Below, in pieces: positions 20,884-29,511 of a DNA stretch of 64,000 bases. The translations under genes and the position numbers were made by a program. The stretch comes from an uncultured Candidatus Rokubacteria bacterium. GTDB taxonomy: Bacteria > Methylomirabilota > Methylomirabilia > Rokubacteriales > CSP1-6. Numbering within the stretch: the first letter of the stretch is position 1; the number at the start of each line of letters is the position of its first letter. The DNA lies in the NCBI GenBank assembly GCA_963840495.1, contig CAWIZN010000044.1, positions 194,055 to 258,054 of the forward strand. The letters are read 5' to 3'. The notes beneath the pieces are model-generated. The model was not told where the DNA came from. It saw nothing but the letters and a program-made list of their open reading frames with translations, and made no database searches.

Positions 20884-23004
20884 ATGCTACCGAACCGGCC
20901 CGACCTGTTCCGGCAATCCGTACTGCTCGGCATCACCGCGCTCGCGCTGCTGGCGTGGGCGCCGCCGACGCAAGCCCGCGTGACACGCATTATCATCGAC
21001 ACGAAGACGTCGCCCGCCTTCGGCGGCCAGTCCTTCGGTGCCGCCGGCCAGTACGAGACGCTGGCCGGCCGCGCCTTCGGCGAGCTCGATCCGGACGATC
21101 CGCACAACGCGATCATCCAGGACATCGACCTGGCGCCGAAGAACGCGAACGGCAACGTGGAGTACATGGCCACGTTCTTCCTGGTCAAGCCGATCGACAT
21201 GTCGAAGAGCAGCCGCCTGATGTGGCACGACGTGCCGAACCGCGGCGGCCGGCTCACGCATCGCGGCCGCCAGCCGCGATGGACGGCGACGTCGGGCTTG
21301 AGCAGCGGGTGGCAAGGTGACAACTCGGGCGCGACGGTGCCCGGGCCCAACAACGACTACGTCGTGGTGCCCATCGCGAAGAATCCGGACGGCTCGTCGA
21401 TCACCGGGCTCAGTCCTGGGGCGAATCGTCAACGCGAGCGGCGTCGATTCGCAGCGGATGTTCGTGCACACGAACCCGGTGCCGTATCGGCCGGTCGACC
21501 CTCGATACGACGCAGGCCACCCTGACCACGCATGCCTCCGAGACCATCGAGGGCAAGATCGGCGAAGACGGCCAAGATACGCGACACCGACTGGGCCTGG
21601 GCGAGCTGCAGCGCAGCCAACCCGTTTCCGGGGACGCCCGACCCGACCCAGATCTGCCTCAAGAACGGCTTCGATCCGGCGCTGCTCTATCAGGTGGTGT
21701 TCACGGCCAAGGATCCCTATGTGCTCGGCGTCGGGCTTCGCCGCGTTCCGCGACGTCGCGTCCTTCTTCAAGAACGCAGCCCAAGACGACGTCGGTACGC
21801 CCAACCCGCTGGCCGGCGAGCATCTCGTGGGTCATCGGCCGCGGGTGTTCGCAGTCGGGGAACTTCCTCAGAGGCTTTCTGCACCTCGGCTTCAACCAGG
21901 ACGAAGCCGGGCGGCAGGTGTACGACGGCGCCTGGCCGATCATCGCCGGGCCGGCGCATCGCCCTGAATTTCCGCTTCGCCATGCCCGACGGCGTGCTGA
22001 AGCTGTACGAGCCGGGCAGCGAGGGCCCGCAGTGGTGGGTGCCGTGGCCCGATCCGGTGCGCGATCTGCCGACGAGGGGCATCCTCGATCGCTGCACCGC
22101 CAGCCACACGTGCCCGAAGGTCGTCGAGCACTTCGGCGCGGCGGAGGTCTGGGGCGCTGAAGCTGACGCCCGGAATGGGTGGGCACGAAGGCCGATGCCG
22201 ACATCCCGCTGACCGACGAAGTCCGCCGGTACTACATCCCCAGCACCCAGCACGGCGGCGGGAACGGCGGCTTCAACGTCAATCCGCTGCCGCCCGCCGA
22301 ATTGCCCCAGCACCGAACTACGGTCAGGGCACGTTCGCCGCCAATCCGGTCCCGCACACGCGAGACGGTCAACGCGATACGGGTCCATTTCCGCAACTGG
22401 GTCATGCACGGGACACCCCGCCCCCGAGCCGCTACCCGCTGCTGGGCGGTCACAGTGGGCCCGACGGCAACCTGGTCGACGCGACGAAGAAGGACATGGG
22501 GTTCCCGACCATCCCGGGCGTGCCGCCGTCGGCGCCGACCGGCTTGATCAACCCGGTCCTTCGAGTACGACTTCGGCCCCGATTTCGACTACAGCGACGC
22601 ATCGGGCGTCCAGACGGTGGTGCCGCCGAAGATCAAGAAGGTCATTCGAATGCTCGTCCCGAGAGTGGATGCCGACGGCAACGAGCTCGGCGGGGTGCCG
22701 GTGGTGCTGCGGGATGCGCCGCTCGGCACGTATCTGGGATGGAACATCACCGCGGCAGGGTTCCACAAGGGCAAGATCTGCAACTATGCCGGAGGCATGA
22801 TCCCGTTCGCGAAGACGCAGGCTGAGCGGGTGGCCAGCGGCGACCCGCGCCTGTCCCTGGAAGAGCGGTACGGGGACTCACGCGGGCTACGTCGCCGCGG
22901 TGCAGGCGGCCGCGGCCAAGGCGGTCGCTCAGGGCTTCCTGCTGCAGAGCGACGCGGATGCGCTCATCGCGCAGGCCGCCGCGAGCAACGTGCTGAATCC
23001 GTAG
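20884..23004 (+). pseudogene. secreted protein of unknown function (alpha/beta-hydrolase-domain-like family, by recollection), heavily frameshifted
   Basis: ATG at 20884 after GAGGAG, with a signal peptide MLPNRPDLFRQSVLLGITALALLAWAPPTQA. Protein-like segments alternate among all three frames. Examples are ...VTRIIIDTKTSPAFGGQSFGAAGQYETLAGRAFGELDPDDPHNAIIQDIDLAPKNANGNVEYMATFFLVKP..., ...ISWVIGRG.SQSGNFLRGFLHLGFNQDEAGRQVYDGAWPIIAG..., ...RRIALNFRFAMPDGVLKLYEPGSEGPQWWVPWPDPV..., ...VVPPKIKKVIRMLVPRVDADGNELGGVPVVLRDAPLGTYLGWNITAAGFHKGKICNYAGGMIPFAKTQAERVASGDPRLSLEERYG... and the C-terminal end ...LIAQAAASNVLNP* (TAG 23002-23004). I traced about 12 frame changes. Confidence 0.6.
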
Positions 23005-23034
23005 GACCAGCTCGGAAGCCCGCATCGAGCCGCG

Positions 23035-23072
23035 GGGGCGCGTGTCGCGAGGCACGCGCCCCGGCGTTTTTT
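23035..23072 (+). terminator. rho-independent terminator
   Basis: A GC stem, ggggcgcgtg (23035-23044) paired with cacgcgcccc (23053-23062), has an 8-nt loop and is followed by a T-run (tttttt, 23067-23072). It lies 30 nt after the upstream stop codon. Confidence 0.7.
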
Positions 23073-23078
23073 GGGCCG

Positions 23079-23107
23079 TTGACTACTCAACAAATGACGT
23101 GTAGTTT
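23079..23107 (+). promoter_or_regulatory. sigma70-type promoter TTGACT-N17-TAGTTT with overlapping palindrome (candidate SOS operator) upstream of imuA
   Basis: TTGACT at 23079-23084 and TAGTTT at 23102-23107. The inverted repeat ACTAC-N14-GTAGT (23082-23105) spans the spacer. This patch is AT-rich in an otherwise GC-rich genome. Confidence 0.6.
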
Positions 23108-23135
23108 AGGCTCACTCGGACAACGGCTCGATCAC

Positions 23136-23759
23136 ATGGCTATCTCGGTGGAATCCTTGCCCCCGCCAGGGTGGGACCCTCGAGGGATAGATCTCTTGCT
23201 CAGCGCTTTCCCCGCGGGAAGGCTCAGCGAGATCGTCGGTCCCCGGTCCTCCGGAGGCAGCAGCCTGCTCCTGGCCTTGCTCGCCCGCGCCACGGCGGCG
23301 GGCGGCCAGGTCGCGCTGGTCGATGCCGCCGACGCGCTCGATGCCGCCTCGGCCATGGCGTCGGGCGTGGAGCTCTCGCGCCTGCTGTGGGTGAAGTGCG
23401 GCGGGCGGCTCGAGTCGGCCCTTCGCGCCGCCGATCTCCTCGCCCGCTGTCCGGGCTTCGCGGTGGTGGCGCTCGATCTCGGCGAGGGGCCGCTCACCCG
23501 GGATCATGGCGTCTCGTCCTCGCTCGGCCTCAGGCTGCAGCGCGCGGTGGAGGGGACGTCCGCCATCCTGGTCCTCCGCGTCCCGCATCGCCTGACCGGT
23601 AGCGCCGCGGCCCTCGTGGTCGAGCTGCATCGGCGGCAGGCGCGATGGATGGGCGTGCCGCGTCCCACCCGCCTCGCGGGCCTGGATTCCGAGGCCCGGA
23701 TCCTCCGCTCTCGCTCGGGGGGCGCGCCGGGCGCGTGGGCGATCGAGTGGCGGCTATGA
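23136..23759 (+). CDS. imuA: ImuA-like RecA-fold/SulA-like protein of the mutasome cassette
   Basis: ATG at 23136 (in frame within track ORF 22617..23759): ...[62 protein letters not shown]...GFAVVALDLGEG... This is the ImuA pattern. Its stop overlaps the imuB start (ATGA at 23756-23759). Confidence 0.75.
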   Translation: MAISVESLPPPGWDPRGIDLLLSAFPAGRLSEIVGPRSSGGSSLLLALLARATAAGGQVALVDAADALDAASAMASGVELSRLLWVKCGGRLESALRAADLLARCPGFAVVALDLGEGPLTRDHGVSSSLGLRLQRAVEGTSAILVLRVPHRLTGSAAALVVELHRRQARWMGVPRPTRLAGLDSEARILRSRSGGAPGAWAIEWRL

Positions 23760-25046
23760 GGCGCATCGCCTGTCTCCTCGTCCATGAGCCGGCGGCGGTG
23801 CCACCCGCCTCGCGCGAGCTGCTCGAGGTCGCGCTCGCCCACTCGCCACGAGTGGAGGAAGGCGGCGCCGATCACGTGTATCTCGACGCCACCGGGCTCC
23901 GCGGGCTCTTTGGCAGCGAGGAGCAGCTCGCCCGGCGTCTCGTGGCGGCGGCGGGCGAGCGCGGGCAGGGGATCCGGGTGGGCATCGCGGGCAGCCGGAT
24001 CAGCGCGCGCTTCGCCTGCCGCTTGCGCGATGGCATCACCGTCGTCGAGCCCGAGGGCGATGCGGCGTATCTGGCGCCGGCTCCGGTGGCGCTCCTCGAT
24101 CTCTCCCCCGAGATGGCGGCGCGGCTCGACCGCTGGGGCATCCGCACCCTGGGCGAGCTGGCCGCCCTGCCCCCCGCCGCGCTCTTCGAGCGCCTCGGCG
24201 GTGAAGGGCCGCGCTTGCAGCAGCTCGCGCGGGGCGAGGATCCCCGCCCGCTCCGCCCCTGGGCGCCGCCGCCGATCCTCGAGGAGACGGCGGCGCTCGA
24301 CGATGCGGTGGAGGCGCTCGGGCCGCTCGTCGAGCTGCTGGCGACGCTCGCCGGGCGGATCTGCGATCAGCTCGCCCGGCGCGGGCGCTCGGCGGATCAG
24401 TTCGAGTGGGTCTGCCACCTGGCCGATCGCCGCCGTCACGAGGGAAGCTGCGTGCCGGCCGTTCCCCTGAGCGAGCGCGCGGCCGTCACGGCGCTGCTCC
24501 GGGCCTCCCTCGAAGCCCATCCCCCCGGCGGCGCGGTGGTGGCGGTGACGCTCCGGGCGCGGCCGGTGCGGGTCCCCGCCGCGCAGACGTCACTGGGCGA
24601 TCCCTCGCGCCCGAGCCCGCGGCTCGTCACGGCGACGCTCGCCCGGCTCGCCGCCCTGGTCGGCGCGCAGCAGATCGGCGTCCCCGTGCCGCTCGACAGC
24701 CATCGCCCCGACGCGGTCGAGCTCGCGCCCTATCAGTGTCCCCGACGCATTCCTCGACGAGCACAGCGGGCCGGGGGAAGGAGTCCGCGCGGCGCTCGCC
24801 TTGCGCCGCTTCCGCCCGCCGCTTCCCGCCAGCGTCACGCTGGTCGCCGGCCGCCCGGTCGAGCTTCGCTCGCGGCGGCTCGCCGCGCGGATCGTCATCA
24901 GCGCGGGGCCGTGGCGCGTGTCGGGGGAGTGGTGGACCGAGCGCCCCTGGCTGCACGACGAATGGGACGTGGAGCTGGGCGAGGGCGTGATCTGCCGGCT
25001 CACTCAAGACGGCTCCGCCTGGTGGCTCGACGGCATCTACGACTGA
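23756..25046 (+). pseudogene. imuB: ImuB, Y-family-polymerase-like mutasome subunit, one frameshift
   Basis: MRRIACLLVHEPAAVPPASRELLEVALAHSPRVEEGGADHVYLDATGLRGLFGSEEQLARRLV...LDLSPEMAARLDRWGIRTLGELAALPPAALFERLG... is the ImuB/DinB-like fold without catalytic acidic residues checked. The C-terminus is in track ORF 24801..25046 (...AGPWRVSGEWWTERPWLHDEWDVELGEGVICRLTQDGSAWWLDGIYD*). The shift is near 24735. Confidence 0.8.
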
Positions 25047-25139
25047 GCCCGCATCGAATGACTCTCGCAGAATTCTGCCAACGCCATGGGACGCGTATCG
25101 TCCCACCGTTGGGGCTGGTCTGATCCGCGGGGCTCAGGG

Positions 25140-28100
25140 ATGTACGTCGAGCTGCACGCCCGGAGCGCCTTCAGCTTTCTCGAGGCGACGCCCTTGCCGG
25201 AGGCCCTGGCCGAGCGGGCGGCGCAGCTCGAGCAGCCCGCCGTGGCGCTCGTCGACGCCGACGGCCTCTACGGCGCGCCCCAGCTCTACCGCGCGTGCAC
25301 GCGCCTCGGCCTCAAGGCCATCGTCGGCGCCGAGGTGACGCTCGACGGCGGCGGTCGGCTCCCGCTCCTGGTCGAGGACCGCGAGGGGTACAAGAACCTC
25401 TGCCGGCTCTTGACCCGCATCAAGATGCGCGCGCCCAAGGGCGAGGGCGCGGCCACCGTCGACGATCTCGTCGAGCACGCGGCGGGGCTGGTCTGCCTCA
25501 CGGGCGGCGCCGGGGGCCCGGTGGCGGCGCACCTGGCCCGGGGTGACGACGGAGGGCGCGGGCGATCTCCTCCAGCGCCTGGTGACCGTCTACGGCCGCT
25601 TCAACGTCCACGTCGAGCTGCAGCGCCATCTGTCCCGCGCCCAGGAGGCGCAGAACGACTGGCTGCGCGCGCGGGCGTCCGGCCTCCGCCTGCCGCTCGT
25701 CGCCACCAATGCGCCCCGGCTCGTCGCCCGCGAGGACCGGCCGCTGCTCGACGTCTTGACGTGCATCCGGGAGCACACGACCCTCGATGCCGCGGGGCGG
25801 CTCCTCTCGCAGAACAGCGAGCGCTTCATGAAGAGCGGGCGGGTGATGGAGCGGCTCTTCGCGGACTGCCCGGAAGCCGTGGCGAACGCAGGCGAGCTGT
25901 CGCTCCGGCTCGGCTTCACCCTCAAGGACCTCGGCTACCAGTTCCCCGACTATCCGCTGCCGCCGGGCGAGACGCCCATCGGCTACCTCCGCGCGCTCTC
26001 GGAGGCGGGCGCGCGCACGCGCTACGGCACGGGGCCGCTCGCGGAGCAAGGCCCGCCGCCAGATCGCGCACGAGCTCGACGTGATCGGGCGCCTCGATCT
26101 GGCCGGCTACTTCCTCATCGTCTGGGACCTGGTCCAGTACTGCGGCCGGAACGAGATCCTCGTGCAGGGGCGGGGCTCGGCGGCCAATAGCGCCGTGTGC
26201 TACGCGCTCGGGCTCACCGCCGTCGATCCGGTGGGGATGGAGCTGCTCTTCGAGCGCTTCCTCTCCGAGGAGCGCGGGGAGTGGCCGGACATCGACCTCG
26301 ACCTGCCGAGCGGCGACCGCCGCGAGAAGGTCATCCAGTACGTCTACGAGCGCTATGGCCGCCTCGGCGCGGCGATGACCGCCAACGTCATCACCTATCG
26401 CGGCCGGAGCGCGGCGCGGGAGGTCGGCAAGGCGCTCGCGCTGCCCGCCGATCTCATCGAGCGGCTGTCCCAGCTCGTCAGCAACTGGGAGTACAAGGAC
26501 CCCGGCGATACGCTCACCGCGCATCTCGGCGAGGCCGGCTGCGATCCCGGCGACCTGCGCATCCAGCACTTCGCGCGCGTGTGGACGGCGATCCAGGACC
26601 TGCCGCGGCATCTCGGCCAGCACTCCGGCGGCATGGTGATCTGTCAGGGACGACTCGATAGCGTGGTGCCGCTCGAGCCCGCCACCATGCCGGGCCGCTC
26701 GGTGATCCAGTGGGACAAGGACGACTGCGCCGCCCTCGGCATCGTCAAGGTGGACCTCCTCGGCCTCGGCATGATGGCGCTCCTGGAAGACGCGCTCGAG
26801 ATGATCCGCCGCGCGCGGCGGCTCGGTCGACCTCGCCCATCTGCCCCAGGACCGCGAGGTGTACGAGATGCTGAAGAAGGCCGACACCATCGGCGTCTTC
26901 CAGGTCGAGAGCCGCGCCCAGATGGCCACCTTGCCGCGCCTGCGGCCCGAGTGCTTCTACGACCTCGTGGTGCAGGTGGCGATCATCCGGCCGGGCCCCA
27001 TCGTCGGCGACATGGTGCACCCCTATCTCCGCCGCCGCGCCGGGCGCGAGAAGCCGACGGTGCCCCATCCCGCCCTCGAGGAGATCTTGAAGCGCACGCT
27101 CGGCGTGCCCCTCTTCCAGGAGCAGCTCCTGCGCATGGCCATGGCGACGGCGGGCTTCACCGGCGGCGAGGCCGAGGAATTGCGGCGCGCCTTCGGCTTC
27201 AAGCGCTCCGAGCGCGCCATGAAGGCCGTGGAGACAAAGCTCCGCGCCGGCATGACCCGCCAGGGCATCGTGGGCGAGCAGGCCGAGAGCATCATCCGCT
27301 CCATCACCGCCTTCGCGCTCTACGGGTTTCCGGAATGCGTCGTCGGCGAGACCCGGGTGATCGACGCCGACACCGGCGGATGGGTGAGGATCGAGGACAT
27401 CGTGAACGGACGCGTGCGCGTCGAGCACACGCTCGCCTGCGACCCGGACATGAAGCTGCGCAAGCGCCGCGTGCTCGCCGCCACGTCGAGCGGCCCGCGG
27501 ATGGTCTATCGCCTGCGCACCGCGCTCGGCCGGGAGCTGTTGGCGACGCCCGAGCATCCGTTGCTCACGATGGACGGCTGGCGCCCCCTGGGAGCCCTCA
27601 AGGAGGGAGACCATATTGCGGCATCGCGTGAGCTTGCACCCCTCGGTCGCAAACGCTGGCCTCAGTACCGGCTCATCGTGCTCGCCGATCTCATCGCCGA
27701 AGGCAATCTGTGTCATCCGAGCACACTGTACTTCTACACGACGGATCCTCAGTATCGAGACGAATTTGTGAGCGCTGTCGAGAGATTCGAGAACACACGA
27801 GCAACCATAGCCTTCACAAGAAAACTGCTACAGCGTGCATGTCCGGCGGGCCGACGCCACGAGGCCGATCGGAGTAGTCGAATGGGTGAAGCAGCTTGGA
27901 ATTTGGGGGGACGGCGCGCGCACGAAGCATCTACCAGAGGAAATATTCCTCCTGCGAAGCAGCGATCTCGGTCTGCTGCTTGCTCGGCTGTGGGAAGGCG
28001 ACGGATCTTTGTCGCTCGCTGGCCATGCTTCGTACGACACTGTATCGCGCCGACTCGCTCAGGAAATCCAACACCTGCTCCTGCGAATGGGAATTGTGTC

Positions 28101-29511
28101 GCGATTGTATAAACGGGCTCGGCCATGCCGCGATGGAATTGCGATAGGGTTTGTCGTCACGATTACCGGGCAGAGGAACCTCCGTCGATTCCATCGTGTG
28201 ATTGCTAGACGGTTTCTCAACGCGAGCAAGCGCCGGCTGATGGAGCAGATAGTTCAGCGTCGAAGAGATGGCCGCGCCTCTCGAGACGTCATCCCAGTGG
28301 CGGTGAGGGCCATGGTCGATTCAGCTCGGCAGAAGCCGGCGGCTGACTGGGATAGGCTCGGGCGAGGAGACGAGGCTATCGATGCGTGCCATCTGCTCAC
28401 CAGATGGATCGAAACGTGGATACCGTCGACGAACGATTGTCCGCTTGGCCCGGTATTCGAGTGCCGGATGGCGCCTGGCGGGGTCCGATGTCTGCTGGGA
28501 TCGGGTCACCGCGGTCGAGCTGGTCGGTGAGCGGGACACGTACGACCTGCACGTCGAGGAGGACCACAACTTCATCGCCAATGATCTCGTGGTGCACAAC
28601 TCGCACGCGGCGAGCTTTGCGCTGCTCGCGTATGCCAGCGCCTACCTCAAGCGGCATCATCCGGCCGCGTTCTACGCCGCGCTCCTCAACAATCAGCCGA
28701 TGGGGTTCTATCACCCGGCCACCATCGTGCGGGACGCCCAGCGGCACGGGCAGGTGATCCATCCCGCCGACGTCAACTTCTCGGGATGGCTCTGCGCCAT
28801 CGAGCCCGACGAGGCGGTGCGGCTCGGGCTGCGCTACGTCAAGGGCTTGAGAGAGGAAATGGGCAAGCGCATCGAGGAGGAGCGCCGGCGGGGGCCCTTC
28901 GCCTCGGCGGCCGATCTGGTCAAGCGCACGGAGGTGCGCCGCGACGAGCTGACCCAGCTCGCCCGGGTCGGCGCCCTCGCGAGCCTCGAGCCCGAGCGGC
29001 GCGCGGCGCTCTGGGACGCCGAGCGCGCCGTCCGTCCTCGCGGGGTCTTGTATGACGCGCTCCCGGATCCCCGGAGGCCTCCCCACTTCGGGTGATGACG
29101 CCGGGAGAGCTGATCGTCGCGGATTACGAGGGCACCGGCTTGAGCCTGGGGCCTCATCCGATGGAGTTTCACCGGGCGCGGCTCGACCGGATGCGCGCGT
29201 CGCGGGCGTCGGATCTGGCGACGATGCCCCACGGCATCCTCGTGCGCGTGGCGGGCGCGGTGGTGGTGCGCCAGCGTCCGGGCACCGCCAAGGGCTTCGT
29301 CTTCCTGAACCTGGAGGACGAGACCGGGCTCATGAACGTGATCGTGCGCCCCGCCCTGTTCCACCGCTACCGGCTCGCGCTGGTGAACGAGCCGTTCCTC
29401 TACGTGGAAGGCACGCTCCAGCACCAGGACAATGTCGTCTCCGTCAAGGCCGAGCGCCTCGCCCCGCTGCGCCACCGCCTCACGCCGGTTCCCTCTCACG
29501 ACTTCCACTGA
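25140..29511 (+). pseudogene. dnaE2: error-prone DNA polymerase III alpha-like DnaE2, intein-containing, multiple frameshifts as sequenced
   Basis: The PHP start is MYVELHARSAFSFLEATPLPEALAERAAQLEQPAVALVDADGLYG. It continues through track ORFs 25543.., 26081.. (GRGSAANSAVCYALGLTAVDP...PDIDLDLPS...), 26859.. (GVFQVESRAQMATL...IIRPGPI...), 28382.. (SHAASFALLAYASAYLKRHHPAAFYAALLNNQPMGFY...) and 29092..29511 (OB-fold end). Extein frame changes are near 25540, 26050, 26820 and 29070. It sits directly after imuA-imuB. Confidence 0.9.
27336..28600 (+). mobile_element. intein with LAGLIDADG homing-endonuclease domain inside DnaE2
   Basis: The N-extein/intein junction is YGFPE|CVVGETRVIDADTGGWVRIEDIV (Cys1 at 27336). 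The dodecapeptide motifs are LIVLADLIAEGNL and LGLLLARLWEGDGSL. The C-terminal block is TYDLHVEEDHNFIANDLVVHN|SHAAS (Asn at 28598-28600, +1 Ser). The region is visibly AT-richer than its flanks. There are two internal frame changes, near 27820 and 28420. Confidence 0.85.

Follow-up and report, generated by a model that had tools for sequence, protein, structure and literature searches.

We analysed an imuA-imuB-dnaE2 cassette located in a 64-kb stretch of DNA (contig C44:194055-258054, hereafter the window, whose numbering is used below; its features lie on the + strand unless indicated) from a metagenome-assembled genome (MAG) that is taken to belong to the order Rokubacteriales, phylum Methylomirabilota (assembly of 4.83 Mb in 83 contigs, 69.8% G+C, approximately 80% complete). 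We consider it probable that the cassette is a LexA-repressed 'mutasome' operon of this bacterium, and that the frame changes interrupting its genes are assembly errors. Judging from its conservation in related genomes, the operator is probably a 20-bp LexA box, TACTCAAC-AAAT-GACGTGTA (23084-23103), and not the inverted repeat ACTAC-N14-GTAGT as written in a first-pass annotation of the same promoter. Since SOS-controlled imuA-imuB-dnaE2 cassettes are textbook, the operon itself adds nothing new; the system is of a known kind whose LexA box is a variant not described before, and the novelty is a concrete candidate LexA operator for the Rokubacteriales, an abundant uncultured soil lineage.

The imuA box (TACTCAACAAATGACGTGTA) occupies the spacer of the imuA promoter and touches both hexamers, so that a bound LexA dimer would be expected to exclude RNA polymerase. 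When scored with a symmetrised position weight matrix (PWM) built from 29 lexA promoter sites (consensus TACTCAACACGTGTTGAGTA), it reaches 14.3, which is rank 6 of the 4.83 million positions of its own genome, and it is the only site scoring above 5 within the window. The box is a two-mismatch copy of a 20-bp palindrome, TACTCAAC-N4-GTTGAGTA, which is the consensus of the clade and is found in the same promoter spacer position upstream of lexA in 30/30 aligned relatives. In all 30 of these lexA upstream regions a T-run, TTGAC, 3 nt, CTCAAC-N4-GTTGA(G/C) and TAnnnT follow each other in a fixed layout, TTGAC being at the same position in 28 of them. The lexA upstream region of the genome itself carries AGTAGTCAAC-ACCC-GTTGAGCACT (box sequence TAGTCAACACCCGTTGAGCA, PWM score 29.1), and the 10-mer GTTGACTACT has three genomic occurrences, two of which are the lexA and imuA promoters. 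Beyond the aligned set, YCAAC-N4-GTTGR was found 40-95 nt 5' of lexA in 32 of 80 further lexA loci, where LexA is at least 58% identical, except in locus L130 (53%, labelled Rokubacteria); among the same 80 loci, it was not found upstream of lexA in those of Methylomirabilis/NC10 and Thermodesulfobacteriota. In the lexA promoters of the nearest relatives (G003, G015, G005, G010, G024 and G006; G-numbers denote related genomes and L-numbers fetched loci), a half-site-like TGTTGAG/TGTTTAG stands again about 10 nt 3' of the lexA box. This element, which the genome studied here lacks, may represent a second, overlapping operator.

An orthologous cassette headed by an ImuA homologue was found in 28 relatives, and the best PWM site upstream of imuA scored 8.1-27.9 in 27 of them, the one miss being a locus that ends at a contig end. 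For comparison, random 250-nt pieces of the genome gave a 99.9th percentile of 7.8. Several of these imuA promoters also hold TTGAC at the position of the imuA -35 hexamer, and the best-kept positions across the three site sets are TAC-T-C..C ... T-G...AG-TA. In addition, most of the relatives' imuA promoters show another conserved block, CCCCnAnATCTnGnGGT(C)TTG, approximately 20 nt 5' of the LexA box; this block is missing in the present genome, where the terminator directly adjoins the promoter.

Several points weigh against a LexA-repressed mutasome operon. The right half of the imuA box, GACGTG, agrees with GTTGAG at just 3/6 positions, and the score of 14.3 lies below those of all 29 lexA sites (19-34) and of most imuA sites of the relatives. 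ImuA reaches 33.6 bits against the NCBIfam ImuA equivalog cut-off of 150, and the cassette has approximately 1.2 frame changes per kb, compared with a rough estimate of about 0.5 per kb for the rest of the window. The weakness of the right half could mean that the box has decayed, that LexA no longer binds it and that the cassette is constitutive or otherwise controlled; its two departures (T to C at position 15 and A to T at position 17) do fall at best-kept positions and are each seen in only 3 of the 27 imuA sites. We nevertheless consider decay improbable, as the same GACGTG right half is retained in the imuA site of another genus (G005, CACTCAACACATGACGTGTA), the left half and the outer GTA show no mismatch, and the site keeps its high rank in the genome. 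Moreover, it is normal for SOS boxes to differ in strength.

The first-pass annotation had expected a LexA-type operator in the promoter spacer and had named the inverted repeat ACTAC-N14-GTAGT (23082-23105, no strand assigned) as a possible lineage-specific SOS box. The repeat is indeed present there, and the expectation was right in so far as a lineage-specific box lies in the spacer; the motif itself did not stand, as only its inner TAC/GTA (23084-23086 and 23101-23103) falls within the conserved box. In the 4.83-Mb assembly ACTAC-N14-GTAGT has a single occurrence, namely in the imuA promoter, and the genome search for looser forms with N12-16 returned only this same site. It is thus absent upstream of lexA and recA, which taken literally would reject the motif, and it is unable to define a regulon because the imuA site is its sole genomic match. 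A pair of 5-bp arms alone is without significance, and the weight of this one derives from comparative data; G003 and G015, which are the closest relatives, do not conserve the outer AC/GT pair, and ACTAC-N14-GTAGT was rejected as the operator motif. A cassette-specific regulator other than LexA could still be imagined to bind this perfect 5-bp dyad, which does extend across the promoter spacer. We regard this as very improbable, given the uniqueness of the dyad and its unconserved outer pair; in addition, no regulator gene was found next to the cassette when the flanking genes of the window were checked, and the LexA box accounts for the conserved positions.

The promoter to which the candidate LexA box belongs consists of a -35 hexamer, TTGACT (23079-23084), and a -10 hexamer of the TAnnnT type, TAGTTT (23102-23107), separated by 17 nt, as annotated in the first pass. 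A generic sigma-70 scan did not call TTGACT-N17-TAGTTT as a promoter, and TAGTTT has 3/6 bases in common with TATAAT. The call was retained on comparative grounds, because the TTGAC...TAnnnT layout is conserved in the relatives: TTGAC is kept in their lexA and several of their imuA promoters, and TAnnnT adjoins the box in their lexA promoters. Just 5' of the -35 hexamer is the T-run of a rho-independent terminator (23035-23072), belonging to the upstream Abhydrolase_10-like gene and composed of a stem (23035-23062) followed by GGCGTTTTTT. Its 12 pairs, of which 10 are G-C, its T6 run and a fold energy of -35.9 kcal/mol (z = -2.6) bear out its description as a clean terminator, and it is the sole terminator-like site in 22600-23400.

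The clade palindrome resembles the Cheo box, or Gram-positive-type CGAAC-N4-GTTCG, in its 4-nt spacer, its xAAC/GTTx core and its placement over the promoter. It differs from it by a core of CAAC/GTTG instead of GAAC/GTTC, one base per half-site away from a type that the first-pass annotation had ruled out, and by extra conserved outer TACT/AGTA arms. The Cheo-type GAAC-N4-GTTC was rejected as the lexA box, being absent from all lexA promoters of the fetched loci, with its 4 matches elsewhere in these loci. The sequence matched none of the published LexA-box types compared (CTGT-N8-ACAG, GAAC-N4-GTTC, GTTC-N7-GTTC and others), and our literature search found neither a LexA motif described in Rokubacteria or Methylomirabilota nor a published description of TACTCAAC-N4-GTTGAGTA. 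The idea that the spacer holds a lineage-specific SOS box outside the published consensus sequences is in agreement with both this search and the conservation of the box upstream of Rokubacteriales lexA.

The LexA encoded by this genome is predicted to be of the canonical, self-cleaving type. With the TIGR00498 equivalog model it scores 211 bits, above the cut-off of 111, and its translation contains AAG, with the Ala-Gly cleavage site, together with the GESM and VKRF motifs of the Ser/Lys dyad. Among the PWM sites in promoter position, those of lexA and of three DNA-repair genes, namely a radical-SAM/HhH gene (C6:100320), an AlkB-like 2-oxoglutarate (2OG) oxygenase (C26:6954) and an MrfA-like DEAD-box helicase (C13:30345) rank 1st, 3rd, 5th and 15th, respectively. 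Conservation of the radical-SAM site, TACTCGTC-N4-GTATAGTA, extends over nine genomes, and we assign the gene to the COG4277 type from its domains; in other phyla, the COG1573-COG4277 pair has been documented as part of the SOS response (PMC8565304). Also to be set against our interpretation is that recA (C42:24142) has no box, its best PWM score being -2.2, so that the regulon would depart from the textbook SOS pattern. Taken together, these predicted sites suggest an SOS regulon that is small and leaves out recA.

In the lexA promoters of the sister order, Methylomirabilales/NC10 (loci L116-L133, approximately 60-100 nt upstream), the same TTGAC-box-TAnnnT layout was seen with a different palindrome, ACCATAC-N4-GTATGGT. 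This palindrome probably represents a second LexA specificity within the phylum, and since the layout is the same and the palindrome is not, LexA specificity appears to have shifted within the phylum. More broadly, we find it reasonably likely, with less confidence than for the operon, that LexA specificity changed within Methylomirabilota under a constant promoter layout (TACTCAAC-N4-GTTGAGTA in Rokubacteriales, ACCATAC-N4-GTATGGT in NC10), with a Rokubacteriales regulon centred on lexA, the mutasome and base-repair genes, without recA, and with a mutasome that in some members needs the splicing of an intein from DnaE2 (described below). The boxes of the two orders would offer a clean pair for the study of LexA specificity drift under a fixed promoter architecture, and the Rokubacteriales box permits the prediction of SOS regulons across hundreds of Rokubacteria MAGs.

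The three genes are imuA, imuB and dnaE2, as the first-pass annotation had recognised (an ImuA-like RecA fold, a Y-family-like ImuB and DnaE2), and these identities are supported by Pfam and NCBIfam matches. The imuA gene (23136-23759) encodes a 207-aa RecA-fold protein (Pfam RecA, 1.8e-12), 69% identical to the protein heading the G003 cassette; its Walker A region reads GPRSSGGS and has lost the lysine, as would be expected of a RecA homolog whose ATPase site is not functional. The imuB gene (23756-25046, in frame 2 to approximately 24770 and then in frame 0) encodes an inactive Y-family polymerase with an ImuB-C tail. Its product matches Pfam IMS (1.3e-7) and, weakly, Pol IV from about profile position 80; the N-terminus, MRRIACLLVHEPA, is without the DxD acidic motif, which predicts a catalytically dead protein, and its last 88 residues share 70% identity with the tail of the G003 ImuB. 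The dnaE2 gene is composed of an N-extein (25140-27335), beginning with MYVELHA as in the closest relative and ending with ...ALYGFPE, an intein, and a C-extein (28601-29511, the stop codon ending at 29511) that starts with Ser+1 (SHAASFALLAYAS...) and carries the HHH_6 and OB domains. The DnaE2 pieces match Pfam PHP, pol3_alpha, finger, HHH_6 and OB, and three of them score 360, 277 and 182 bits with NF004225 ('error-prone DNA polymerase') versus 185, 155 and 80 bits with the DnaE1 model, an approximately twofold difference; a separate dnaE1 is present on contig C6.

The genes are adjoining and co-oriented, in an operon-type arrangement. The imuA stop and the imuB start share ATGA at 23756-23759, an overlap already noticed in the first pass, and the 93 nt between imuB and dnaE2 contain neither a LexA box nor a terminator. 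Together with the profile matches, these coordinates bear out a cassette that follows a terminator and has a promoter of its own. The prototype is the LexA-regulated imuA-imuB-dnaE2 (imuABC) cassette of Caulobacter, Pseudomonas and Mycobacterium (PMC6511836), with which the present one shares the same three proteins in the same order, the translational coupling of imuA and imuB, a LexA-type operator on the promoter, a RecA-homologous ImuA lacking the Walker A lysine, and an ImuB that lacks the catalytic acidic residues and keeps the ImuB-C tail. It differs from this prototype by the sequence of the operator, by an ImuA below the NCBIfam cut-off and by an intein-interrupted DnaE2. In G015 (locus L064, 2461-5446), approximately 3 kb with other open reading frames (ORFs) separates imuB from dnaE2, and the cassette is split.

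We propose that (i) a LexA dimer on TACTCAAC-AAAT-GACGTGTA would block RNA polymerase at the imuA promoter; (ii) DNA damage would activate RecA and lead to the self-cleavage of LexA; (iii) imuA, imuB and dnaE2 would then be transcribed as a single mRNA; and (iv) DnaE2 would have to splice out its 421-residue LAGLIDADG intein before taking part in translesion synthesis alongside ImuA and ImuB.

The first-pass annotation had described imuB and dnaE2 as frameshifted in the sequence at hand without deciding whether the shifts are genuine, and one and six frame changes were confirmed in them, respectively. In imuB, the change from frame 2 to frame 0 occurs between 24700 and 24780, a G5 run being present at 24773. 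In dnaE2, the changes are near 25542 (G4 run), 26047 and 26810 in the N-extein, 27823 (A4 run) and 28365 in the intein, and 29070 (C4 run) in the C-extein. Indel errors of the assembly are the most likely source of these seven changes, more so than gene decay, a reading based on the state of the rest of the genome, because the essential dnaE1 is likewise split (C6, approximately 89044, with ...GLAAIKNVG and ...NRRVLESLIKAGAFD... read in successive frames) and a scan of the phase of third-codon-position G+C (GC3) gave 754 frameshift-like junctions genome-wide. This GC3-phase scan is crude and was run without a control genome; since it detects only 3 of the 7 known shifts of the cassette, it under-counts, and its result was used only as a lower bound. 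Alternatively, the seven changes could be real, making the cassette a true array of pseudogenes and the mutasome dead in this organism. The seven shifts are spread over 5.75 kb, a density about 2-3 times the estimated local background, which would fit with this, as would the 3 of the 7 shift sites that lie outside homopolymers of at least 4 bases, and the slightly higher local density leaves a small chance of real decay. We consider such decay unlikely: besides the split dnaE1 and the pervasive frame changes, the seven dnaE2 pieces (approximately 1,460 codons) contain zero in-frame stops, the six extein alignments show 71-89% identity to the DnaE2 of G003, and the G020 ortholog, interrupted by the same intein, reads as a single open frame. 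With assembly error thus preferred, the analysis has a practical side, as pervasive 1-nt indels make pseudogene calls unsafe and caution is needed with any such call in this assembly.

Approximately 1.26 kb of the sequence annotated as dnaE2 is an intein, which had not been noticed in the first pass and which adds one modest entry to the known intein hosts. This class 1 intein (27336-28600, approximately 421 codons) is inserted at GFPE^SHAAS, with the junctions FPE|CVVGET...LVVHN|SHAAS providing Cys1, a terminal His-Asn and Ser+1. It matches Pfam Intein_splicing in both its N part (8e-9) and its C part (8e-10), and the two LAGLIDADG motifs, LADLIAEGN and LARLWEGDGS, keep their acidic residues (LAGLIDADG_3, 1.1e-14). 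On the basis of these motifs, it is predicted to be self-splicing and to contain a LAGLIDADG homing endonuclease. Among the relatives, G003 has an intein-free site (...YGFPEAHAASF...), and G020, which belongs to a different genus, carries a copy that is 65% identical, at the same site and within one open frame of 1463 aa. In G026, a nearly full-length intein lacking part of the N-terminal splicing domain is found in a divergent DnaE2, and G012 and G037 have only the splicing ends, i.e. mini-inteins. The intein-like match of G026, a genome without an imuA match, had been a candidate for dnaE1 and was rejected as such when it located to the divergent DnaE2. This patchy distribution would be the usual picture of an intein homing cycle. 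The insertion site is presumably a few residues from that of the cyanobacterial DnaE intein. In contrast with the cyanobacterial DnaE split intein (cited in PMC3919608), the host here is DnaE2, and no description of a DnaE2 intein was found in our literature search. Cys1, the terminal His-Asn, Ser+1, the two LAGLIDADG motifs, insertion in a highly conserved motif of the host, patchy spread and mini-intein derivatives are shared with the known class 1 LAGLIDADG inteins of replication and repair proteins, of which that of M. tuberculosis RecA (PMC11377839) is an example.

The stop codon of the Abhydrolase_10-like gene upstream of the cassette is at 23003-23005, and the Abhydrolase_10 C-terminus was matched in 22617-23002. 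Within the whole gene (21500-23005), only this C-terminal part has a family match (profile positions 343-398), and the remainder is covered by ORFs in three successive frames, suggesting that the upstream gene may also be broken by frame changes.

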